A stretch of DNA of 14,550 nt from an uncultured archaeon (GTDB lineage Archaea; Asgardarchaeota; Lokiarchaeia; Sigyniarchaeales; SOKP01). Positions 8-14,550 of this stretch are shown in pieces (the stretch's first letter is position 1; each line of letters opens with the position of its first letter). The DNA lies in contig CAZBPC010000086.1 of the NCBI GenBank assembly GCA_964493715.1, positions 1-14,550 on the forward strand, in the 5' to 3' direction. The position numbers and the translations under genes were made by a program. The notes beneath the pieces were generated by a model that saw only the letters and a program-made list of their open reading frames with translations, was not told the origin of the DNA and ran no database searches.

Positions 8-445
8 ATGCCCAAGTATGCTTATTGTGATATATGCAAAAAAGAAATAAGCGATCCAACACGCAAACCCATGGAAACGTTTACAAAAGTAATTTGGGTC
101 CTTCTAATTATTGCCTCTTTAGGAATTCTTACTATAGTTTTCATAATAATATATGCTAACAAGCCAAAACATTTTTGTCCTACCTGTTTTTCCAAGTTAA
201 GATTTACGAGTGAACCGATTAAATCTGAAAAGGAAGAAGAGAAAGAACTCATGGCTAATTTATCATCTAAAGAGAAAATCCTGAGAAAAACAGAAAAAGC
301 CCAAGCTAAGAGGAGATCGGGGGAAAAAGTAGCATTAAAGCAAGATGATGATGACGATGTTGAAGGGGATACTTATTGCGAGTTTTGCGGGGAAGCCATC
401 TCGTTTTCCGATACGAGATGTCCCTATTGTCATTCAAAACTATAA
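8..445 (+). CDS. LITAF-like zinc-ribbon membrane protein with a second C-terminal zinc ribbon
   Basis: CDIC (aa 7-10), one hydrophobic segment (aa 28-49), then HFCPTC (aa 55-60), which is the CxxC-hydrophobic-HxCxxC layout of LITAF domains. A charged linker and an acidic DDDDD run follow, then CEFC...CPYC at the C-terminus. Confidence 0.7.
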   Translation: MPKYAYCDICKKEISDPTRKPMETFTKVIWVLLIIASLGILTIVFIIIYANKPKHFCPTCFSKLRFTSEPIKSEKEEEKELMANLSSKEKILRKTEKAQAKRRSGEKVALKQDDDDDVEGDTYCEFCGEAISFSDTRCPYCHSKL

Positions 446-2512: not shown

Positions 2513-4747
2513 CTAAAATTTGACCTCACACTTATCGCTATCACAATATCTTTCTCCTATTGCACGATCACGTGTATCTCCAAGGAATAAGGGTTGAATT
2601 ATTGAGATCATTTCTTCATATCGTTCTTTCGAGATTTCTTCATAGGGGGCTTGTTTATATCCATGATCTTTATTGGGTAAAAAGCTAACACTTTTTAGCT
2701 TGTCTTCAAAACATTCTAAGACGTGCTTGATTTGACCAGCTTCTTCTGGTTTGAATGTTATCGTGATCGATACTTGATTATCGGACCAAAACTTTTGATA
2801 ATCTGCGGCGTTCTGGGCTTGTTCCCAAATGGAAACATCATTTTTGGATCTATCGAAATATTTTTCATGAATGGGAAATTCAGCAACAACTGTATTTGGA
2901 GAATAAGCATCTTCTTCTACAACATAACCCGCCTTTTTTATTGGTTCGATTAGATCTGAATTTTTAGAAAGACGAATCCTTCGAATGTAATATTCTGAAT
3001 GAGGATAATGAATTCCTGGAGTAACTCCAGGTAATAAACTCACACTTCCACTTGGTTTAACTGTTGTTAGTTTAATTGAATGAGGAATGCAAAGCCAATT
3101 CGAGTATTCTTCGTCCAGGTCCTTTAAAAAATCATAAGCTTTATCGCACCACTCAATCATTGTTCTCCTTCCATGCTTTACGAACGCTTCGATTATCCCA
3201 GTTTGAGAAATGCCCATTCTTCGATTTTTCAACATTACGGCGTTAGTCTCCTGCCATTGCGTATTTATGAGAGTTACGCTCTTCGCATATAAATAGGCAT
3301 ACTTTAAAGTTTCTTGAAATTCCTCGTATGAATTGTGTCTCGATGGAAACGTTTCTACAAGGCAACAAAGTTCAAAGGATTCTAGAGTTTGTTCTCCACA
3401 TGGATTTACTCCCGCAGCTTTCTTATCCTTATAATCTGGTTTATCCTTCATCCTGGAATAAGCTCGTGCGTTCTCTAACCAAAAAATCCCTGGCTCTCCA
3501 TTCACTTCAATCTGTTTACTAATAAAGGAGTAATCCAAACCTTTTACAGCAAACACGGAATTATTGCTGGCCCAACGATGTGAGTATAATTTGTCTTGAT
3601 CTTGCTTGCAAGTGACAAAATCATAATCGGTGGGATCTCCTAAAGCGATTTCAGCGGAACGACGAACGTTACCGGCCACAACACATTTCCCAATTAAATT
3701 CATGATATCAACAATATCAACTGAAGTTATTGGCTCACTGATTCTAACTGTTAAAATTTTCTGAATTTCGTTTAACATATCTTTTAGTGGGTCTGGGCCA
3801 CTAGCGATTCCTCCAAATCCTCTAATTGGTTTACCTGCTGGTCTGATTTGAGAAAAATCATACGTAGGGATTTGTTTACCTAGAAAATAGGCTTCTAGGG
3901 TTAATTTAAGAGCTTCTACCCATCCTTCTCTACTATCAGGAATTTGAAAATCAAAATGACCGACTGCAGGTTTTTTAATCGTAATCTTTCCCGCTCCTTT
4001 CGTGTCAAATCCCACTCCTACCCCTAACATTAGGGCATCCATTACGAATTCGAAAGCTTTTGATACTTTTAAGTTAATGTCTTTCGTAGATGCGAATCCA
4101 CAATTGTTAAGAGACATGGATCCGTTCTTTAAGACAAATTCCGTGCCTGACATCCACAGACCCCTGCCTGGAGGCAAGAATTTAAAATTCCACATTTTAG
4201 AGAACATTATTTTGGCAGATTTCTGGGCTTTTTCGTCACTCCATGGTAAACTCAATTTAATGCAATGTTCTTTCTGAATTGAATAACACCCTTCAACAAC
4301 ACGTCTCACAGTTTCCCAAAATTCCTCTTTTCGGTTTTCTTCTTCAATTAATCGGGCATATGTTCTCTTGTAAGTGACATAACCTAACGGACCCCAATTT
4401 GGTTGAGCATCCTTGTAATTTTTTAAAAAGTCTTCATCTAATTTAAACGAGATATTTTCCAAGTTTATGGCGCGTGCAAAGAGATTACGATATTTATTCA
4501 TTCCTCTTTGCGTGAGTTCAACACATACAAGCTCTCTAATATAATTCGTCGAGATCTCATCTACTCCCAAACCGATTATTTTTCGAATGACATCTTCTGA
4601 TACTTCGGTTGCGAATCTCATATCAAGTCCCGTTTCTTTATTTAAGATCTTGGCAATATTCATTTCATCAAATTTTTTTTTCTCTCCTTTTGAATTTATT
4701 ACGAATTTTGGGAAGAGATCAGTTAATGAAAACGAGTTATCCGTCAT
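2513..4747 (-). CDS. nrdJ: Class II adenosylcobalamin-dependent ribonucleoside-triphosphate reductase (monomeric RTPR/NrdJm type) with N-terminal ATP-cone
   Basis: Motifs FLPPGRGLW, SLNNC, GNVRRSA, finger loop NPCGEQ..ELCCLVE, RRMG and TTVKPSGSVSLL, plus the C-terminal redox pair CDSDKC. The N-terminal VINSKGEKKKFD...ISTNYIRELVCVEL is ATP-cone-like. The track start at 4768 is TTG; the ATG at 4747 (MTDNSF) is preferred. Confidence 0.93.
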   Translation of the reverse strand: MTDNSFSLTDLFPKFVINSKGEKKKFDEMNIAKILNKETGLDMRFATEVSEDVIRKIIGLGVDEISTNYIRELVCVELTQRGMNKYRNLFARAINLENISFKLDEDFLKNYKDAQPNWGPLGYVTYKRTYARLIEEENRKEEFWETVRRVVEGCYSIQKEHCIKLSLPWSDEKAQKSAKIMFSKMWNFKFLPPGRGLWMSGTEFVLKNGSMSLNNCGFASTKDINLKVSKAFEFVMDALMLGVGVGFDTKGAGKITIKKPAVGHFDFQIPDSREGWVEALKLTLEAYFLGKQIPTYDFSQIRPAGKPIRGFGGIASGPDPLKDMLNEIQKILTVRISEPITSVDIVDIMNLIGKCVVAGNVRRSAEIALGDPTDYDFVTCKQDQDKLYSHRWASNNSVFAVKGLDYSFISKQIEVNGEPGIFWLENARAYSRMKDKPDYKDKKAAGVNPCGEQTLESFELCCLVETFPSRHNSYEEFQETLKYAYLYAKSVTLINTQWQETNAVMLKNRRMGISQTGIIEAFVKHGRRTMIEWCDKAYDFLKDLDEEYSNWLCIPHSIKLTTVKPSGSVSLLPGVTPGIHYPHSEYYIRRIRLSKNSDLIEPIKKAGYVVEEDAYSPNTVVAEFPIHEKYFDRSKNDVSIWEQAQNAADYQKFWSDNQVSITITFKPEEAGQIKHVLECFEDKLKSVSFLPNKDHGYKQAPYEEISKERYEEMISIIQPLFLGDTRDRAIGERYCDSDKCEVKF

Positions 4748-4997
4748 ATTTTTCCGCTCTAGACACAATATATGATTTTTTATTTGCGCGTTATTGCAAA
4801 TTTTAAAATGCTAAATTAAAATGCCTTAACCTACCTTATATTTAATGTTCAGTTGTAATATAAATTTATGGTTCACTTTTATTAGCACATTGATGAATCT
4901 CTGAAATTCTTGCTTGCTTGTTATTAATATAATCCATAATTTATATTGAAATTCTGATTTTAATATTTAACCATTTTGTTTTATTGATTGTTCATAA

Positions 4998-5187: not shown

Positions 5188-6195
5188 ATGAAGGCTGCTT
5201 TATTCGATGGTAAACATCTTAAAATTGAAGAAATTGAAGAGCCACTCATGACAGAAACTCAAGTATTAGTAAAAGTTAAAGCAGTCGGAATATGTGGTAC
5301 AGATATTGCTATATATAAAGGTCATTTGCCAACTCCTACTCCTATAATACTCGGACATGAATTTTCCGGAGAAATCGTCAAGATTGGTAAAAAAGTAGAT
5401 TCTTTCTGGCTCAATAAGCGAGTGACGGCAGAAATCAATGCTAATATTGATTTTACTTGTTTTTACTGCCAAAGAGCCATGTACACCCAATGCATTTCTC
5501 GGAAAGCACTAGGTATTGATATCAATGGTGCTTTAGCTGAATATATTGCGCTCGATTCCTATTTAATTCACGAAATTCCTGACAAAATATCATTTGAAGA
5601 GGCTACGTTTATCGAACCTTTAGCAGCTGCGTTTCAAACTTTTGTCATGATGCCGGTAGATAAGGATGATAAAGTAATTGCCATATTCGGATTAGGCAAG
5701 TTAGGACTCCTATTAGCCCAAGTTGCTTTACTAAAGGGATTAGAAGTGATTGTAATCGATGGCTCAGATAAAAAACTCAACATGACAAAAAAATGGGGGG
5801 CTCATCATTTGATTAATCGCTTTAAATGTAAAGAAATCCCTGAAGAAATTAAAAAATTAACTAAAAATTTAGGAGCAGACATCGTAGTCGATACGTCGGG
5901 GAATCCAGATTCATTACATAATGTTGTTAAGTCTTGTAGAACCAGAGGAAAGATCCACATCAAAAGCACTCATGGTCTCGAGGTACTCATGAACTTGACT
6001 GATATAGTTGTAAGGGAAATAACGATATACAGTAGTCGTTGTGGTCCATTTGAATTAGCAATCCAAGGACTTGAGTCTGGAAAGATTCAAGTTAAATCTT
6101 TAATCTCAAATGTCACTAAAATTTCTGAAGTTGAAGAAGTATTTAATTCCTATAATAAAAATAAAGATCAAATAAAAACAATTATCAGATTTTAA
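5188..6195 (+). CDS. Zinc-dependent medium-chain alcohol dehydrogenase (MDR, threonine/sugar dehydrogenase-like)
   Basis: GICGTD and GHEFSG catalytic Zn motifs, structural Zn lobe DxxCxxCx7C, EPLAAA, Rossmann GLGKLG, and KST and SRCGPF motifs. The substrate cannot be assigned. Confidence 0.92.
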   Translation: MKAALFDGKHLKIEEIEEPLMTETQVLVKVKAVGICGTDIAIYKGHLPTPTPIILGHEFSGEIVKIGKKVDSFWLNKRVTAEINANIDFTCFYCQRAMYTQCISRKALGIDINGALAEYIALDSYLIHEIPDKISFEEATFIEPLAAAFQTFVMMPVDKDDKVIAIFGLGKLGLLLAQVALLKGLEVIVIDGSDKKLNMTKKWGAHHLINRFKCKEIPEEIKKLTKNLGADIVVDTSGNPDSLHNVVKSCRTRGKIHIKSTHGLEVLMNLTDIVVREITIYSSRCGPFELAIQGLESGKIQVKSLISNVTKISEVEEVFNSYNKNKDQIKTIIRF

Positions 6196-6316: not shown

Positions 6317-7252
6317 TTGACACTCGAAGAGGATAATAACAGTACAATATTTGATGTAAATGTTCCCGACGATAGTCCCATAAACAAGGAACATATAAAT
6401 CTGCAATATCATTGGTATCTCAGTATTTTTTTTGTTATTTACTACATATCATACGTGATCCCTGGAATTGTATTCATGTACTATATCATACTGTTTTTTA
6501 TTCCGAATTTCTTAAGAATAGACAGCCTTATCACGGTTTTTACGAATATGGAGTATTTATTTTCCTTTTTAATGCTTCCCATCGTACTTTTAGCTAGTTA
6601 TTTATTCCACTTGCTTCTTGTAGGATTGATCACACGTGTTTTTTGGAGAATTACTGAAAAAATCAGTCCTTCCAAGGATGGGATCATTCCACGAAATATT
6701 GCATCTAAAACAGCTAATTTATACCATATTCGATCCTTTATGATTAAGTACGGAAAGAATGCATTCATGAAGGGAATTTTACCATGGTTATCAAATTGGT
6801 TTTTTAATTTTGTTGGAGCAAGTATCATAGAAAAGGGATCTACACTTGAAGAATCTGTTGTTAACGATAGAAATTCGATTGTGGGGAAAAATTGCTATGT
6901 TGGAGTGAATTCCGCACTATCTAGTCATTTTGTAGAAGGGATCTTCGGTAATATTGTTTATTTTAAAATAAGATTAGGAGATAATGTAACACTAGGAGGT
7001 TTTAACAATATCGCTCCCGGTTGTGAAATCAGTGATAATTCCTACTTATTGCCCATGGCAGCTGCTACTAAACACAATACTACAAAAGGAGATAATTATT
7101 ATTTCGGGATGCCTTTACGCAGAATCTTCAAAAAAAAAATAATGGAATATTTACAAGTGACAGAAGAAGATTTAGATCGTGCAGAAGAACTTCGAATGAA
7201 ACAAGAAGAGTTAAAATCTAAAATAAGCAATGAAGATAAATTGGAAGAGTGA
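6317..7252 (+). CDS. Membrane-anchored left-handed beta-helix acyltransferase-like protein, module A (copy 1)
   Basis: TTG start, supported by a similar-length acidic N-terminus in the paralog at 9652. Two long hydrophobic segments are followed by hexapeptide repeats (IVGKNCYVG, LGDNVTLG, IAPGCEISDNSYL, YYFGMP) and the loop motif SSHFVEG. Confidence 0.8.
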   Translation: MTLEEDNNSTIFDVNVPDDSPINKEHINLQYHWYLSIFFVIYYISYVIPGIVFMYYIILFFIPNFLRIDSLITVFTNMEYLFSFLMLPIVLLASYLFHLLLVGLITRVFWRITEKISPSKDGIIPRNIASKTANLYHIRSFMIKYGKNAFMKGILPWLSNWFFNFVGASIIEKGSTLEESVVNDRNSIVGKNCYVGVNSALSSHFVEGIFGNIVYFKIRLGDNVTLGGFNNIAPGCEISDNSYLLPMAAATKHNTTKGDNYYFGMPLRRIFKKKIMEYLQVTEEDLDRAEELRMKQEELKSKISNEDKLEE

Positions 7253-7258
7253 AAAGAT

Positions 7259-8170
7259 ATGGAAAACGATAATTTAGATGATAATATAAATCCCGAAGAA
7301 CAAAATATTAAAGATAACGAAGATGATTTTTCTATTGATTTTACAACAAGTTCTGCAATAAGTAGTGTTGGAATCAAGTTTCTTATCCTATATATACCAA
7401 TTTTTTGGTTCAGTGGGCTTGTAGTTGCGACTTTTTGGTATGGATATGCTGCTGGAACGACGAATTGGATAATAAAGCTGTTATATCTACCTTTGTTTTT
7501 GTTATCTCTGATGTTTCTTTTCATTTTCACGAGTTTCTTCTTTTGTAAACTGTTGTTAATTTTAATAAATTTGATGTGTGTTCCAAAAGAAGGTATTTTT
7601 CGGATTGATACTAAAGATCCAAATTTCGAATTCTGGAAATTGAGAATCGAATTGAAAAAAATTGTGTTATGGTTCTTACGAAATTGGCCTTTACCATGGC
7701 TAGATGTGCTAGCTTTTCGCTTTTTTGGGGTAAAAATAGACTTTTCAAGCCACCTTAATGATGCATGGGTAGATTGTGAATTCATCGAATTCGGTAAGAA
7801 TATAACTGTAGGTCAAGGGGCCGTTTTGATGAGTTCCATGGTAGTTGGCAATTATTTAATTATAAAAAAGATAACTCTGGATGATTTTTCCTTAATTGGA
7901 GGTCAAAGCACGATCGCTCCAGGAACTCACTTTGGAAAAGACACCGTTTTAGGAGCGGTATCTGTCACCACGCTAAACCAAATTTTAGAAGATGGATGGA
8001 TTTATGGGAGTATTCCAGCTCGCAAGTTGAAGCTTAATAAATATGCCGAAGAACGCACGGCTTCTATCCATAAAGTAGATGTTGATGGAGAAGAGAAGGT
8101 TGAGGTTGAACATGATATTAATATTGATGAAGATAAAAGAAAATTTCTAAGGAGGAGTTCTAAAGAATGA
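7259..8170 (+). CDS. Membrane-anchored LbH acyltransferase-like protein, module B (copy 1)
   Basis: Two TM segments, PKEGIF...FWKLR, FFGVKID, and hexapeptide repeats (FGKNITVGQGA, IAPGTHFGKDTVLGA, WIYGSIPA). Homologous to the C-terminal half of 9652..11553. Confidence 0.8.
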   Translation: MENDNLDDNINPEEQNIKDNEDDFSIDFTTSSAISSVGIKFLILYIPIFWFSGLVVATFWYGYAAGTTNWIIKLLYLPLFLLSLMFLFIFTSFFFCKLLLILINLMCVPKEGIFRIDTKDPNFEFWKLRIELKKIVLWFLRNWPLPWLDVLAFRFFGVKIDFSSHLNDAWVDCEFIEFGKNITVGQGAVLMSSMVVGNYLIIKKITLDDFSLIGGQSTIAPGTHFGKDTVLGAVSVTTLNQILEDGWIYGSIPARKLKLNKYAEERTASIHKVDVDGEEKVEVEHDINIDEDKRKFLRRSSKE

Positions 8171-9105
8171 GTGTACCAAATTCTATGCGCGTGGGTCCAT
8201 TTTGTGCTTCTGTTTTGGTAAAAAGGAAATATTTAATCTTGTACATCTTCTTGATATGGGTAACCATACTTCCGGGATTATTAGAACTATGGGCATATTG
8301 GCAAGTATTATGGAATGATGTAAGACCACTCCATTTTTATGTATATTTACCTCTCTTATTAATTGCGATTTATATTACAACTGTATTTGCGGCGATCATT
8401 TCTACAAAAATAGCATTAATGTTTATAAACATCTTACATAAACCAAAAGAAGGAGTATTTCTAAGAGATCGTTCAGATAGAGATTATAGATATTGGAGCC
8501 TCAGAAATACAATAAAAAAATGGCCTACGTGGCTTTCTCATAAATTCCCCTTCCCTTTTTTAGACAATCTCTGTTTTAAAGCATTTGGTGTACGAACTAC
8601 CTTTTCAAATTCCTTATTCGAGGGCTGGGTTGATACGGAATTTGTTACATTTGGCAAGAACGTGGTTTGCGGGCAAGGTGCAATCATTCAATCCAGTGTC
8701 ATAATTGGCAATTTTTTGATAATAAGAAAAACCGTAATTGAGGATAATGTCCGGATAGGAGCACATGTAATAATTATGCCGGGCACTCACATTGGGAAAA
8801 ATTCCATCTTGAATACATGGTCCTCTACGATGGTAGGACAAGAATTAGAAGAAGGATGGATATATAATGGGGGTCCTGCTAAAAAATTTAAAAAAAACAG
8901 GTTTTTCGAAGACATTCCGATCGAAAAGCTTACTCGTGAAGTAGGAGATTATGAAGGATTATTGAAAAAATATGATGAGCAATACGTTAAACGGGAAGTG
9001 AAAAAACGTCATCTATTAGAAAAAACCATAAAACCCCCTCTCCACTTAAGAGATAGATTACATTTAGGAAAAGATAAAGATAATGATACTGATGATGAAA
9101 ATTGA
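8167..9105 (+). CDS. Membrane-anchored LbH acyltransferase-like protein, module C (copy 1)
   Basis: ATGA overlap with module B and an SD-like AGGAGG at 8150-8155. Two TM segments, PKEGVF..DYRYW, and hexapeptide repeats (FGKNVVCGQGA, IEDNVRIGAH, IMPGTHIGKNSIL, WIYNGGPAK). Confidence 0.8.
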   Translation: MSVPNSMRVGPFCASVLVKRKYLILYIFLIWVTILPGLLELWAYWQVLWNDVRPLHFYVYLPLLLIAIYITTVFAAIISTKIALMFINILHKPKEGVFLRDRSDRDYRYWSLRNTIKKWPTWLSHKFPFPFLDNLCFKAFGVRTTFSNSLFEGWVDTEFVTFGKNVVCGQGAIIQSSVIIGNFLIIRKTVIEDNVRIGAHVIIMPGTHIGKNSILNTWSSTMVGQELEEGWIYNGGPAKKFKKNRFFEDIPIEKLTREVGDYEGLLKKYDEQYVKREVKKRHLLEKTIKPPLHLRDRLHLGKDKDNDTDDEN

Positions 9106-9123
9106 AATATTTACCCTTAATAT

Positions 9124-9516
9124 TCAAATATCTATTTTAAATTGATCTTTCAGGTATTTCATAATTTCTAAGCAGGTTTTTTTGATTTTACTTTTGTCAG
9201 GGTATATTAGATATGGTTTTGGGCAGTCTCCATCAAACATACATTCATTTTCTTTCAAGTCATAAATTAAGGGATAAAATTTGCATCCTTGAGGCCTATT
9301 TTCATAAATATTGCACTTTTTGGTAGTCTCATCATAAAAATAGCAATGATGTTCCTTATTTCTTAATTGTATATAACCGTCTCTTCCAATATAACAAAAA
9401 TCTCCTTGTTTTAAATCTCCCTTGAACTCTTTTATAATTCGTTGTATATCTTCTTGAGATAGTATCATTTCCGTTTCTAAGCAGCATTTTCCGCAATCAA
9501 AACAAACTTTAGTCAT
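9124..9516 (-). CDS. YkgJ-family cysteine-cluster (CxxCxxCC) putative Fe-S/Zn protein
   Basis: CFDCGKCC at the N-terminus, then CYFYD...KCNIYENRPQGCKFYP, and an extra C...CP. Confidence 0.88.
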   Translation of the reverse strand: MTKVCFDCGKCCLETEMILSQEDIQRIIKEFKGDLKQGDFCYIGRDGYIQLRNKEHHCYFYDETTKKCNIYENRPQGCKFYPLIYDLKENECMFDGDCPKPYLIYPDKSKIKKTCLEIMKYLKDQFKIDI

Positions 9517-9651
9517 GATGATGGATAAATTAACTTATTATTTGCTAAATATTTTCTTTTTTTTATTTTATTATTATTTTCTAAGTAGATATATTTTAAA
9601 AACTTAAAACTTTAAGACTAAATATTAGAAACCATTAGTGAAATTATAGAA

Positions 9652-11553
9652 ATGCTGGAAGATTCCCAAGAAAATGATTCAATCGTGATGGACGTTCCTA
9701 AAGATGAAGTATTAAAAGAGGAAATTAACATGCCATTTGGATGGTATACTCTCATTTTCATTATAAATTATTATTTATCTTGGTTATTAGCTGGTTTCAT
9801 TTTTCTGTCATATTTCCTTATTGAATTTATGCCTAATGTTCTCCAAGTCACCTCTTTTATCACTCTTTTCACAAATCCAAAATCAATAGTACCATTATTA
9901 TTAATGCCGTTAATAGTAATAGCTTGTTACGTGATTAGATTGATATTTGTTGGCATTACAACTCGGATTTTGTGGAGAATTTCCGAAAGAATTTCTCCAA
10001 GTAAAGATGGAGTGATTCCAAGAAATATTAAATCTAAGGCAGCAGATTATTACCATCTTCGATCCTTCATGCTAAAGTACGGTAAAAACCTTTTTACCAA
10101 GGGAATGTTCCCATGGCTATCAAACTGGTTCTTTAATTTCGTTGGATCTTCAAAAATTGGTAAAGGAACGACATTAGAAGAGTCTGTTGCGTCAGATAAG
10201 TTTGTAACTGTTGGAAGAAACACGTATATGGGCGTTAATGCAACGTTAGCAAGCCATCTCGTTCAAGGAATCTTTGGGAACATCCAATATTTCAGAATGC
10301 ATGTCGGAGATAATGTAACAATGGCCGCGATGAATCAGATTGGACCTGGGAGTGAGATTATGGATGGTTCATATCTTTTACCTCTTGCATCAACGAATAG
10401 ACACAGCGTTTTAAAGGGAGGGCATAATTACTATTTTGGTATTCCTCTTAGAAAAATATTCACGAAGAAGACAATGAATTATTTAGGAATTACAGAAGAA
10501 GATTTGGAAAAAAATGAGAATATGGAAGAGTATTTAAAAAAAATCAAATTAAATCCTCCTAAAAAACAGAAAAAGGACAAAATAATCGAATCCACTAAAA
10601 TCGTCACTACAGAGGTAACAGAAGAACCACAAAAAGAAAAGATAGATGTAGAAAAACTCTCAAAGGAAGATCTCGCCATCGATTTTACAACTTCGAGTGC
10701 AATTAGCAGGATCAATATTAAGTTTCTTATAGTGTACGTCCCAATTTTGTGGTTAGCGGGTTTAATCATCTCAATCTTTTGGTATGAATATACAAAAGGA
10801 GCGTGGGATTTTTCAAATCAAACGAATTTGATCAATTCCATTTTTAAAAATATCAGTACTATTCTCTTTCTACCCGTTGCAATCTTTATCATGATATATC
10901 TCTTCATCTTAGGGGTATTGGTTTTTAGCAAACTACTGTTAATACTCATCAACATGATCCATTTACCAAAAGAAGGTATCTTTTTAGCGGAAGTAGGGAA
11001 CGTAGATTATGATTTTTGGATGTTTCGCACTGAATTAAAGAAAATAGCTTTATGGTTTTTAAGAAATAGCCCTCTACCGTGGGCCGATTTTATTGCTTTG
11101 AAGTGGTTTGGCGTCAATATGGATAGCTCGAGTCATTTATATGATGCATGGTGTGATGTGGATTTTGTTTCTATTGGGAGAAAAGTTCTTATCGGGCAAG
11201 GGGCCACAATCATGTCATCCATGGTGATTGGAAAATATTTGATCATTAAGCGCGTGGTATTTGATGACTATGTCATGGTGGGTGGTCATACTACTATAGC
11301 ACCAGGTACAATCATGGGGCATGATTCTGTCATAGGTGCAATCAGTTCCACTACTTATAAGCGCATTCTTGATCCAAATTATATATACTTTGGAATTCCT
11401 GCCATTCCCTTGAAAGAAAATAAATATGCTGAAGAACGCAGGGATATCGTGGTAAAAAGACTTGTAGATGAATCAAAAAAAGCAGAAGAAACCCATGAAG
11501 TTAATATTGATGAAGATAAAAGGAAATTTATTAAAACCGGAGATGATGAGTGA
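9652..11553 (+). CDS. Fused A+B membrane-anchored double LbH acyltransferase-like protein (copy 2)
   Basis: The N-half matches 6317..7252 (ISPSKDGxIPRNI, YHxRSFMxKYGKN, PWLSNWFFNFVG). The C-half matches 7259..8170 (IDFTTSSAIS, PKEGIF, SSHLxDAW, NIDEDKRKF). A K/E-rich linker joins them. Confidence 0.85.
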   Translation: MLEDSQENDSIVMDVPKDEVLKEEINMPFGWYTLIFIINYYLSWLLAGFIFLSYFLIEFMPNVLQVTSFITLFTNPKSIVPLLLMPLIVIACYVIRLIFVGITTRILWRISERISPSKDGVIPRNIKSKAADYYHLRSFMLKYGKNLFTKGMFPWLSNWFFNFVGSSKIGKGTTLEESVASDKFVTVGRNTYMGVNATLASHLVQGIFGNIQYFRMHVGDNVTMAAMNQIGPGSEIMDGSYLLPLASTNRHSVLKGGHNYYFGIPLRKIFTKKTMNYLGITEEDLEKNENMEEYLKKIKLNPPKKQKKDKIIESTKIVTTEVTEEPQKEKIDVEKLSKEDLAIDFTTSSAISRINIKFLIVYVPILWLAGLIISIFWYEYTKGAWDFSNQTNLINSIFKNISTILFLPVAIFIMIYLFILGVLVFSKLLLILINMIHLPKEGIFLAEVGNVDYDFWMFRTELKKIALWFLRNSPLPWADFIALKWFGVNMDSSSHLYDAWCDVDFVSIGRKVLIGQGATIMSSMVIGKYLIIKRVVFDDYVMVGGHTTIAPGTIMGHDSVIGAISSTTYKRILDPNYIYFGIPAIPLKENKYAEERRDIVVKRLVDESKKAEETHEVNIDEDKRKFIKTGDDE

Positions 11554-11559
11554 ATAATC

Positions 11560-12510
11560 ATGTCAATTCCAAATTCCATGAGGGTTGGCCCTTTTCTCCC
11601 TACAGTTTTAGTAAAAAAAAGATATTTGATTTTTTACATCTTAATAGTGTGGTTAAGTGCAATTCCACTATTTGTTGAATTTTGGGTTTATTATAGATTT
11701 GTTTGGAGTCCGGTTAGACCAATTTTCTTCTTCATATATCTACCCTTATTATTATTACCAATGTATTTGACTTTAGCATTTTTTGGGATGTTCTGGGCTA
11801 AAATTTTCCTAATTATCGTTAATTGGATACATTCTCCACGCGAAGGAGTATTTCTAAGGGATCCTTCTGATCGGGACTATAGATTTTGGTCATTGAGAAA
11901 TACAATAAAGCGATGGCCTTTTTGGGTTTGCCATAGATTTCCTTTCCCTTTTCTTGATAATATATGCTTTAAAGTTTTCAATGTCAAAACTAAGTTCTCT
12001 AATAGCTTGTTCGAAGGATGGGTGGATACGGAATTCATTACATTTGGTAAGAACGTGGTTTGCGGTCAAGGTGCAATTATTCAATCAAGCGTAATAATAG
12101 GTAATCTCTTAATAATTAGAAAAACCATTATAGGAGATGATGTTCGCATTGGATCACATGCAATTGTCATGCCTGGAACTCAGATTGGAAATAGAAGTGT
12201 GCTGGCAGCAAATTCGGTAACCACTGTAGGACAAGTTTTAAAAGATGATTGGATCTACGTGGGCATTCCCTGCAAGGAATTTAAACAAAATTGGTTTTTT
12301 GAAGATAATTTAGAAGATAAATTAGGTGTAGCTGAAGATGTTAGTGCATTATTAGGAAAATATGAAAAAATTATTACTAAGGTTAGATGGACAGAAAATC
12401 TTACTTTAAAAGAACGCAAAGCGATAAAAAGGCAACAAAAAGAAGAAGAAGAACGTCGTTGGGAGCTGAGTAAAGAAATGGATGATGAAAAACAAGAAGA
12501 TATATTCTAA
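11560..12510 (+). CDS. Membrane-anchored LbH acyltransferase-like protein, module C (copy 2)
   Basis: Close paralog of 8167..9105 (MSxPNSMRVGPF, FPFPFLDN, FSNSLFEGWVDTEF, FGKNVVCGQGAIIQSSVIIGN), with a charged C-terminal tail. Confidence 0.85.
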   Translation: MSIPNSMRVGPFLPTVLVKKRYLIFYILIVWLSAIPLFVEFWVYYRFVWSPVRPIFFFIYLPLLLLPMYLTLAFFGMFWAKIFLIIVNWIHSPREGVFLRDPSDRDYRFWSLRNTIKRWPFWVCHRFPFPFLDNICFKVFNVKTKFSNSLFEGWVDTEFITFGKNVVCGQGAIIQSSVIIGNLLIIRKTIIGDDVRIGSHAIVMPGTQIGNRSVLAANSVTTVGQVLKDDWIYVGIPCKEFKQNWFFEDNLEDKLGVAEDVSALLGKYEKIITKVRWTENLTLKERKAIKRQQKEEEERRWELSKEMDDEKQEDIF

Positions 12511-12944: not shown

Positions 12945-13652
12945 TTACTTTATAACAAAATACATTCTTCGGTTTTTTGCGCCTTTATTGACTGTTTTGG
13001 TCAACTCAATTGTTCCAATTTCTTTTAAATGGCTTACATGAGTTCCCCCATCAACTTGTTCATCAATATCTCCAATTTTTACTATTCGAAATTCTTGAAG
13101 GTCTTTAGGTAAACCGGCAGCTAAACGAGCAAGCTCTGGTTTCTCCATGACATCCTCAGGAGTCATGTAATCAACAGTTACCGGCAAATCTTGTTGAATG
13201 ATTTTGTTAGCTTCATCAACAAAAGCTTGAAGTTTCTCGGGAGAATAATCATCCATTGAAAAATCCATTCTACTTTTATCCAATTCGATTTGATTACCCG
13301 TAATTTTAGCTTTCGCTTTTCTATACAAGATGTTACTGATCAGATGACAAGCTGTATGATATCTCATGAAAGTAAATCTTCGCTCCCAATTTATTTCACA
13401 AGATACAAAATCTTCTTCATTCAAGCCTGGTTTATCGACTTCATGGCTTATTTCTCCCGAAAATTTACCAACATATACGACCTTGAACTTTTCTCCATTT
13501 TTAGTAATGAATCCCTCATCGCAGGGCTGACCTCCTGATTTTGGATAAAAAGCGGTTTTATCGAGGATTAAGAATTTCCCTTCAGTTACTTTAAGCACTT
13601 TCGCATTCCATTGTTTCAAATAAGAATCATTCATGTATAACGCATTGGTCAT
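12945..13652 (-). CDS. alaXM: Alanyl-tRNA editing protein AlaX-M (free-standing trans-editing domain)
   Basis: LYMNDSYL, ILDKTAFYPKSGGQPCDEG, MRYHTACHL (HxxxH), SRMDF, RIVKIG..DGGTHV and NKGAKNRR. The length of 235 aa is typical of AlaX-M. Confidence 0.92.
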   Translation of the reverse strand: MTNALYMNDSYLKQWNAKVLKVTEGKFLILDKTAFYPKSGGQPCDEGFITKNGEKFKVVYVGKFSGEISHEVDKPGLNEEDFVSCEINWERRFTFMRYHTACHLISNILYRKAKAKITGNQIELDKSRMDFSMDDYSPEKLQAFVDEANKIIQQDLPVTVDYMTPEDVMEKPELARLAAGLPKDLQEFRIVKIGDIDEQVDGGTHVSHLKEIGTIELTKTVNKGAKNRRMYFVIK

Positions 13653-13868
13653 AGTTTAAACAAAGAATGATTTTTTTAAATTGTTATTATATTATCCATA
13701 TTTTTTATTTAATAGGGATCTACCTAGGTTATGAGGCACTAATTATTGATTTGATATATTCAACTTAAATTTAGTTTAGACAAAATTGTAATTTTGATTA
13801 GTCAAATTTAATACATTTTCTATCTATATATCTCATTATATTATATAAAACAATGAAACTTGATTATC

Positions 13869-14550
13869 ATGAATCTAAAAACAAAATTTAGCTTTACTTT
13901 CTCAATAGTTTTACTCCTATTACCGCTCATATCGAATTTTATGATTCCTACTAATATTACTACTAGAATCGCTCAGTTCAATGTGAATGATAATCTAAAG
14001 TCATCTAGTTATTGGATTATAAGTCCAATTTATATCAATGGATCAGCTATAGGAGTTGATGCTCATAATTGGACCTGGGCAGAAAGCCAACCTTGGTGCA
14101 CTGGTAATGGTACATTAATAAACCCTTATCTTCTTGAAAATATTACAATCGATTGTGGAGGTGGAAGTGGGATATTCATAGAGAATTCAGTAAATGTGTA
14201 TTTCATTGTAAAAAACTGTACAATAATGAGTGCTGGAACAAATGGAGGCATTAGACTTATAGAGGTTCAAAATGGTACTATTTTTAATAATAATATTAGT
14301 AATAATTATGTGGGAATGTATCTTGATCAATGCGAAGGTATCAACATAACAAAAAACATAGTATACGATAATATTGGCCAAGGTATTATCTTGCTCCTTA
14401 GTATGTATAATCTCATTATTAATAACACACAAAAAGGTAGTCGATACTACGGTTTGTTCTTACAAGGTCAAAGTAATAATAACACAATAATTGGCAATAA
14501 TTTTACAGAAAACACTCATTCAGTCTATGATGGAGATGGGATTAAAATTA
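13869..14550 (+). CDS. Secreted NosD-like right-handed parallel beta-helix protein (partial, runs off window)
   Basis: Not in the ORF track because there is no stop in the window. Manual translation from ATG 13869 is open to the end: MNLKTKFSFTFSIVLLLLPLIS (signal-peptide-like)...LKSS...PIYINGSAIGVDAHNWTWAESQPWCTGNGTLINPYLLENITID...GIFIENS...GIRL...NNNISNNYVGMYL, with repeated G-I-x-L / N-N-x-I turns. Confidence 0.88.
   Translation, partial: MNLKTKFSFTFSIVLLLLPLISNFMIPTNITTRIAQFNVNDNLKSSSYWIISPIYINGSAIGVDAHNWTWAESQPWCTGNGTLINPYLLENITIDCGGGSGIFIENSVNVYFIVKNCTIMSAGTNGGIRLIEVQNGTIFNNNISNNYVGMYLDQCEGINITKNIVYDNIGQGIILLLSMYNLIINNTQKGSRYYGLFLQGQSNNNTIIGNNFTENTHSVYDGDGIKI

Follow-up and report, generated by a model that had tools for sequence, protein, structure and literature searches.

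Among the closest described systems to the one reported here is the C-terminal, polymerising end of the Pls/PosA synthetases, the NCBIfam family TIGR02353, to which epsilon-poly-L-lysine and delta-poly-L-ornithine synthetases belong. [quoted passage not shown] According to the same part of that article the domain has no experimental structure, and no Pls/PosA polymerisation domain was found among the chains solved up to April 2026. Here we analysed a stretch of 14,550 bases from an uncultured Lokiarchaeial archaeon, called the window below, which is the entire contig C86 (CAZBPC010000086.1) of an assembly of 3.68 Mb in 160 contigs, rated 100% complete. Its region 6317-12510, which runs exactly from the start of the first open reading frame (ORF) to the stop of the last, holds six homologous modules in five plus-strand ORFs. 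Each module combines two membrane helices with a left-handed beta-helix (LbH) domain, and the modules form two sets of three classes, A, B and C, whose members probably assemble into one body per set. No description of such an A-B-C membrane LbH system was found in the searchable literature, in line with an earlier note on this DNA, which had recognised no described archaeal counterpart.

Module classes and gene layout

The features of the region are listed below with their coordinates in the window ("=" marks a natural fusion).

A1, 6317-7252, plus strand: 311 amino acids (aa), TTG start; class A module (two transmembrane helices, linker, LbH), clade A
B1, 7259-8170, plus strand: 303 aa; class B module, 6 bases 3' of A1
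C1, 8167-9105, plus strand: 312 aa; class C module, with a 4-base overlap with B1
CxxCxxCC (PF03692) protein, 9124-9516, minus strand: 130 aa; Pfam score 50.1 bits; conserved neighbour
A2=B2, 9652-11553, plus strand: 633 aa, natural fusion of A (about residues 1-318) and B (about residues 319-633); two domains matched by the module hidden Markov model
C2, 11560-12510, plus strand: 316 aa; class C module, 6 bases 3' of A2=B2

Modules, classes, order, fusions and the predicted assembly described below were computed from the sequence. Each module runs in the order two helices, conserved turn, helical linker and short hexapeptide-repeat LbH; the helices are visible as two hydrophobic stretches in the hydropathy analysis and as two long helices in AlphaFold models. 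The earlier note had described six modules of this build, which is borne out except that A2 and B2 are fused, the modules lying in five ORFs rather than six genes. Its division into two colinear sets of three distinct types agrees with BLASTP identities and with the three clades of a module tree, and the tight coupling that it saw within sets corresponds to gaps of 6, -4 and 6 bases (A1-B1, B1-C1 and A2=B2-C2). The two sets are 546 bases apart, and the opposite-strand gene 9124-9516 sits in that space.

Modules of the same class share 52% (A1/A2), 50% (B1/B2) and 55.5% (C1/C2) identity by BLASTP. Across classes the identity is 38-41% between B and C and 20-28% between A and either of them (E 1e-8 to 1e-16); judged by these comparisons, the similarity among the six modules far exceeds chance. 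The two sets of the window did not arise by recent tandem copying, because C2 is about 70% identical to proteins of other genera, compared with its 55.5% to C1. Pfam recognised Hexapep families only in the five ORFs. PF00132 (cut-off 27 bits) was passed by C1 (36.0 bits), A2=B2 (37.2) and C2 (41.1); A1 (25.1) and B1 (12.6) stayed below the cut-off, and both are clear homologues of the other modules. By Pfam recognition the proteins belong to the hexapeptide-repeat (LbH) superfamily. Right after the second helix, the motif P-x-E-G-x-F is strict in classes B and C (VPKEGIF, LPKEGIF, KPKEGVF, SPREGVF). The class A turn is P-S-K-D-G-[IV]-I, one residue longer and free of the aromatic residue, and the motif P-x-[ED]-G..[YF] first ascribed to all modules thus holds in B and C and fails in A.

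Conserved order, fusions and predicted assembly

We sampled 20 loci from 17 related genomes and four contigs of the window's own genome. A tree of the 117 modules found on these 24 stretches separates three deep clades, A (43 modules), B (38) and C (29), with 7 outliers; by their sequences, A, B and C are old paralogue classes. The cyclic order A-B-C was kept in all 31 complete sets. Nineteen of these have three genes, nine consist of an A=B fusion plus C, and three of a C=A fusion plus B; two of the last three have a C-like module just outside the C clade. As the loci were picked through C-type matches, they contain C by construction, which does not apply to A and B or to their order.

Natural fusions are of three kinds, A=B, C=A and C=A=B, the last represented by P0243, a protein of 797 aa from a Promethearchaeota metagenome-assembled genome (MAG). 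A search for longer forms of C2 gave two proteins, both of them C=A fusions, and no B=C fusion was seen. With its A-B and C-A junctions, this cyclic permutation fits a ring of three. P0243 was modelled by AlphaFold2 from an alignment in which C=A rows covered repeats 1-2 and A=B rows repeats 2-3. The model is a single body with six membrane helices and three LbH domains (mean predicted local distance difference test, pLDDT, 80.4; predicted template-modelling score, pTM, 0.82), and each repeat runs from two long helices through a short strand and two further helices to a beta-helix. The AlphaFold2 model of A2=B2 by itself was poor (pLDDT 59.4) and was left out of the fold search.

When A2=B2 was predicted in complex with C2, the interface score ipSAE was 0.83, 0.82 and 0.83, against 0.00 for the best of 3 controls. 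A score this high was also obtained for 58 of 80 solved complexes and for 2 of 110 mismatched pairs, counts that are only a rough guide since the A2=B2/C2 alignments were custom-supplied. At least 81% of the contacts were common to the runs, with a partner pLDDT of about 80. The predicted contacts of C2 reach the A half (residues 63-298) as well as the B half (residues 336-582) and involve helices, linker and beta-helix; an E-E-S triplet of A is among the residues that touch C. The complex model supports binding of C2 to A2=B2, short of showing it. The hetero-oligomer of A, B and C proposed in the earlier note is thus favoured by cyclic order, natural fusions, the triple-fusion model and the predicted complex, and we consider it probable that the three modules of each set form one heteromeric body.

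The same data bear on a different reading, in which A, B and C would be separate homotrimeric membrane-anchored acetyltransferases with different substrates, and the operon would reflect co-regulation only. LbH enzymes are typically homotrimeric, and this reading can also draw on single-module genes in distant Asgard families, on orphan A=B fusions and on a lone A-like gene. However, a covalent A=B or C=A=B protein cannot give three homotrimers without a larger lattice, and the cyclic order in 31 of 31 sets, the predicted contact of C2 with both halves of A2=B2 and the single body of the triple fusion (pTM 0.82) all speak against independent assembly. A histidine of class A is, in addition, missing from B and C. 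We judge separate homotrimers to be quite unlikely.

The genome of the window holds at least 12 modules. On its other contigs we observed a cyclically permuted set made of a C-like=A fusion plus B (contig C25, 18419-20813), a pair of divergent modules, X+X (contig C89, 5202-6782), and a lone A-like gene with no module neighbours (contig C9, 37502-38287).

Relation to Pls/PosA and to bacterial stand-alone proteins

The three tandem repeats of Pls type, each made of two transmembrane helices and one LbH domain (2TM+LbH), are here spread over two or three polypeptides, the comparison being one of models on both sides. The 3x(2TM+LbH) layout that had been suggested for the region equals that of the PosA C-terminal model, as far as it is described in the available part of PMC10522769. 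Kinship to Pls, which had also been suggested, holds to a lesser extent. TIGR02353 ranks first among the NCBIfam matches of B1, C1 and C2 and second among those of A2=B2, only a few bits ahead of families of generic acetyltransferases; but its scores are 11.4 (A1), 32.6 (B1), 42.4 (C1), 49.4 (A2=B2) and 36.1 bits (C2) against a curated cut-off of 423.1, and the direct similarity lies mostly in the LbH. No match over the cut-off was found anywhere in the genome. Membership of the Pls/PosA family was rejected on these scores, together with the absence of an adenylation or carrier domain on the same polypeptide.

To follow this relation we used a class profile of 68 B, C and X modules against 1.84 billion representatives. 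It matched 4293 proteins at E<=0.001; of these, 491 reached E<=1e-10 and 87 reached E<=1e-30. The best 150 matches include four complete bacterial stand-alone three-module proteins of 651-683 aa (P0314, P0325, P0366 and P0381), a three-module protein with an N-terminal short-chain dehydrogenase domain (P0337, 960 aa) and single-module proteins of about 230 aa. P0244 (651 aa) is separate from the four bacterial triples, being an N-terminally truncated Asgard C=A=B fusion. The named sources of stand-alone triples are Elusimicrobiota, with loci from a Planctomycetales MAG and an Omnitrophota MAG. The bacterial three-module proteins score 157-184 bits on TIGR02353, still under the cut-off, and the single-module P0348 matches profile positions 3-218, helices included. 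P0314 had matches in 91 plasmid records, and in 27 of these the match covers 80% or more of the protein. Of the 25 records listed, 24 show a colinear match over 86-94% of P0314 (22-25% identity, best E 1e-23). Most of these matches fall under a Pls/PosA synthetase or adenylation-domain annotation, and several in unannotated stretches.

In hhalign comparisons, Asgard classes A, B and C match the bacterial stand-alone proteins with 98.2-99.2% probability over 155-175 columns, and the stand-alone proteins match four true Pls/PosA C-terminal domains with 99.8% probability over 174 columns. After removal of the LbH, Asgard B, C and X still match the bacterial stand-alone proteins moderately (75-85% probability, P about 1e-5; reversed-sequence controls, P 0.19-0.92), and class A keeps no signal against them. 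On this evidence the sequence links to Pls run through the bacterial stand-alone three-module proteins. The Asgard proteins fall, together with the Pls domain, within a broader 2TM+LbH module superfamily, and stand outside the Pls/PosA family.

A true Pls-like polymerase would need more than this superfamily tie: a separate adenylating enzyme and a carrier would deliver the monomer, an amino acid or a similar compound, and the polyamide would be exported through the six-helix bundle. The PosA-like layout, the rank of TIGR02353 for B and C, and the chain of homology through the stand-alone bacterial proteins are in its favour. However, PP-binding (PF00550) and phosphopantetheinyl transferase (PF01648, ACPS) had no match in this genome, in spite of its rated completeness, and control genomes were positive, which makes a polymerase supplied by a carrier unlikely. 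The five ORFs, the window as a whole and the 20 related loci covered gave no adenylation or carrier domain, the Pfam matches of the five ORFs being of Hexapep type only. This agrees with the earlier note as regards the window; of the two associations to which that note had looked, A-B-C co-occurrence was found (31 sets) and linkage to an adenylation or carrier gene was not (20 loci). With TIGR02353 scores of 11-49 bits against 423 as well, the polymerase role that had been proposed finds no footing in the genome, and we hold it to be highly improbable.

Fold matches and proposed function

Compared with solved structures by Foldseek, the modules matched only soluble LbH enzymes, with no membrane LbH assembly among the matches. 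Maltose and galactoside O-acetyltransferases, which are acetyl-CoA-dependent, ranked first (3ftt: E 1.8e-5, template-modelling score 0.57 on the target). Class A has a nearly invariant histidine in an LbH coil, with a small loop after it (H204 in A1, H202 in A2=B2). In the combined alignment this column is also histidine in Pls module 3, in the middle module of the bacterial triples and in single-module proteins; it is serine in B, C and X. Because the histidine is kept in A and replaced by serine in B and C, class A is read as the putative catalytic subunit. Since no carrier was found, free acyl-CoA is the simplest alternative donor.

The best overall explanation, which we hold with about even confidence, is a heterotrimeric membrane acyl-CoA-dependent transferase of Pls-like layout; acyl-CoA transferase function taken by itself is put forward a shade more tentatively. 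We infer enzymatic activity, donor, topology and the role of the histidine as follows. Each set (A1+B1+C1; A2=B2+C2) would form one membrane-embedded pseudo-threefold complex, with six membrane helices under three different LbH domains placed side by side as in LbH acyltransferase trimers. The LbH face would be cytoplasmic, given the charged K/E-rich tails and the basic residues past the second helix. The complex would transfer an acyl group from acyl-CoA, probably acetyl-CoA, to an acceptor that is either bound to the membrane or exported. The catalytic histidine would come from class A, with B and C completing the sites between subunits and the bundle of helices. Such a complex would be a split, stand-alone archaeal relative of the domain type that forms the Pls/PosA polymerising end, free of the adenylation and carrier part.

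Some of the same matches suit a non-enzymatic role, that of an LbH scaffold on a membrane channel or anchor, comparable to the gamma-carbonic-anhydrase-like subunits of complex I or to dynactin p25/p27. Foldseek and sequence matches in the Protein Data Bank (PDB) include the carbonic-anhydrase-like subunits and dynactin, B and C have no obvious catalytic histidine, and the most conserved residues lie near the membrane helices. Yet the best fold matches are active acetyl-CoA-dependent transferases, class A keeps its histidine together with a set of invariant polar LbH residues, and the related Pls domain is catalytic. A scaffold thus seems to us unlikely.

Several observations weigh against the transferase complex as we describe it. 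As to its assembly, LbH trimers are common in solved structures, so that the complex score may partly reflect memory of homotrimers, and close paralogues can also pass a complex test of this kind. As to its composition, a 1:1:1 ratio is not universal: seven A=B fusions (L023, L024, L025, L036, L039 and L040) lack their own C gene, and there are also one extra A, a lone A-like gene and an X+X pair. Five of the orphan A=B fusions have a complete set at a distance of about 0.1-1.1 kb; for that of L036 the flanking sets are about 3.7-3.9 kb away. The sister family has three two-gene A+X sets, formed by A plus one other module. Modules occurring singly in relatives, which the earlier note had counted as evidence against its own proposal, were found in part: distant Asgard families have single-module genes, and these are not of A, B or C type. 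As to its chemistry, the class A histidine could not be equated with a known catalytic histidine, that of LpxD falling elsewhere in the printed alignments. As to its kinship, Asgard modules match true Pls domains with 95.5-98.4% probability over 104-136 columns in hhalign, mostly over the beta-helix, and with the LbH removed there is no signal between the two (P 0.5-0.85). Finally, the neighbours in the window and in related loci are housekeeping genes that vary by genus, with no coherent pathway among them.

Distribution and gene neighbourhood

A search with C2 gave 660 homologues at E<1e-5. The 120 listed come from Asgard MAGs; the closest is 90% identical, the others are 64-73% identical, and their annotation is at most "DapH/DapD/GlmU-related". 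A2=B2 has 408 homologues, and the 120 listed all span 608-646 aa. In the ESM Atlas, A1 retrieved only Promethearchaeota clusters and one Hexapep cluster from Bdellovibrionota. In a survey of the phylum, 102 of 299 genomes had a match at E<=1e-10. All 66 genomes of the window's own family and all 7 of the sister family were positive, usually with at least 7 matches each; most other families of the phylum gave none or weak matches only. Distant Asgard families have single or paired 2TM+LbH genes of 240-290 aa, which the profile matches from the second helix onward. Two-gene sets occur in the sister family and in one other family of the class. In two of the sister family loci (L029, 9684-10988; L030, 9290-10558), the second gene encodes 422-434 aa and has a C-terminal extension of about 130 residues.

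The one recurrent partner gene is that of the CxxCxxCC protein. In the window it is divergent from A2=B2, with a spacer of 135 bases. In all 10 loci that have an orthologue, in three genera, it faces the A or A=B gene of a C2-type set head-to-head across 96-195 bases. In a fourth genus (L027), a similar but longer PF03692 gene is found upstream of another set. The other neighbours in the window are an ATP-cone-containing class II (B12-dependent) ribonucleotide reductase (2513-4768, minus strand), a zinc-dependent alcohol dehydrogenase (5188-6195, plus strand) and an AlaX-like editing protein (12945-13652, minus strand). They recur near sets in 8, 7 and 5, respectively, of the 23 stretches clustered, which apparently reflects synteny. 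Neighbours at other loci include a nitrilase-family (carbon-nitrogen) hydrolase, a heliorhodopsin, DUF6512, DUF1295 and an acyl-CoA dehydrogenase.

A different context is seen around a bacterial stand-alone triple from the Planctomycetales MAG (L063, 7971-16404). After the triple, and all on its strand, come genes for a GT1-type glycosyltransferase, a GMC oxidoreductase and a short-chain dehydrogenase together with three dTDP-sugar genes (RmlA-, RmlD- and RmlB-like). Such dTDP-sugar and glycosyltransferase genes were not seen beside the Asgard loci, and a second bacterial stand-alone locus has different neighbours. The context of L063 is a weak hint of sugar or glycolipid acylation.

At the two ends of the window we observed genes of other kinds. 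The ORF at 8-445 (plus strand) encodes a small membrane protein with a LITAF-like zinc ribbon (PF10601, 24.3 bits, cut-off 23.8) and a second, C-terminal zinc ribbon; the LITAF-like domain family is known mainly from eukaryotes. The ORF at 13860-14549 (plus strand) runs off the contig end and has a signal-peptide-like start and NosD/right-handed beta-helix repeats; its product is probably a surface protein. The 24 read datasets listed as containing the stretch are all DNA runs and none RNA; 23 are labelled salt marsh and 1 sediment.

Evolution and significance

The forms found in Asgard archaea can be arranged, from their sequences, into a series that may lead from single-module to two-gene, three-gene and fused forms. 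A parallel series in bacteria would comprise single-module proteins, the stand-alone triple and the triple behind adenylation and carrier domains. If so, the gene family records a stepwise path from single-module genes to fused forms. C is the most conserved class and orphan A=B fusions exist, for which reasons different A=B proteins may draw on a common C subunit.

A bolder reading, which we regard as doubtful, takes these sets as lineage-wide, multi-copy, combinatorial heterotrimeric machines of Lokiarchaeia, perhaps with a shared C, that acylate or polymerise a surface molecule and translocate it. They would then be an unfused, carrier-independent precursor of the bacterial Pls-type device, and would offer a clear natural progression that starts at the homotrimer and passes through two-gene and three-gene forms to the fused pseudo-trimer. 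Apart from this, the sets make up a conserved multi-copy membrane family of Lokiarchaeial families that is annotated only as "DapH/DapD/GlmU-related", and whose probable role is modification of envelope or lipids in the archaeal lineage that stands nearest to eukaryotes. For work on the structure and mechanism of the Pls/PosA domain, a small carrier-free form, split into differentiated subunits, would also be an easier object.

Comparison with known systems

The maltose and galactoside O-acetyltransferases, AntD and LpxD have the LbH fold in common with the Asgard modules and are the best matches by Foldseek and by sequence in the PDB. These soluble LbH acetyltransferases are homotrimers with identical sites, whereas in the Asgard system each module has two membrane helices, the three subunits are differentiated, and a candidate for the catalytic histidine occurs in one class only. 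The bacterial stand-alone triples are likewise free of adenylation and carrier domains, and the Asgard profiles match the second helix, linker and LbH in each of their modules. They differ in being a single polypeptide, in having modules that are not of A, B or C type, and in standing much nearer to TIGR02353. With the C-terminal domain of PosA/Pls, the Asgard system shares the 3x(2TM+LbH) layout, and the order of secondary structures in the Asgard triple-fusion model matches the description given in the available part of PMC10522769. In the combined alignment, Pls modules 1 and 3 also have, after the second helix, a glycine followed two residues on by an aromatic residue, in common with the Asgard modules. 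The Asgard form differs from Pls/PosA in that it is split over two or three polypeptides, does without adenylation and carrier domains, and has an archaeal host.

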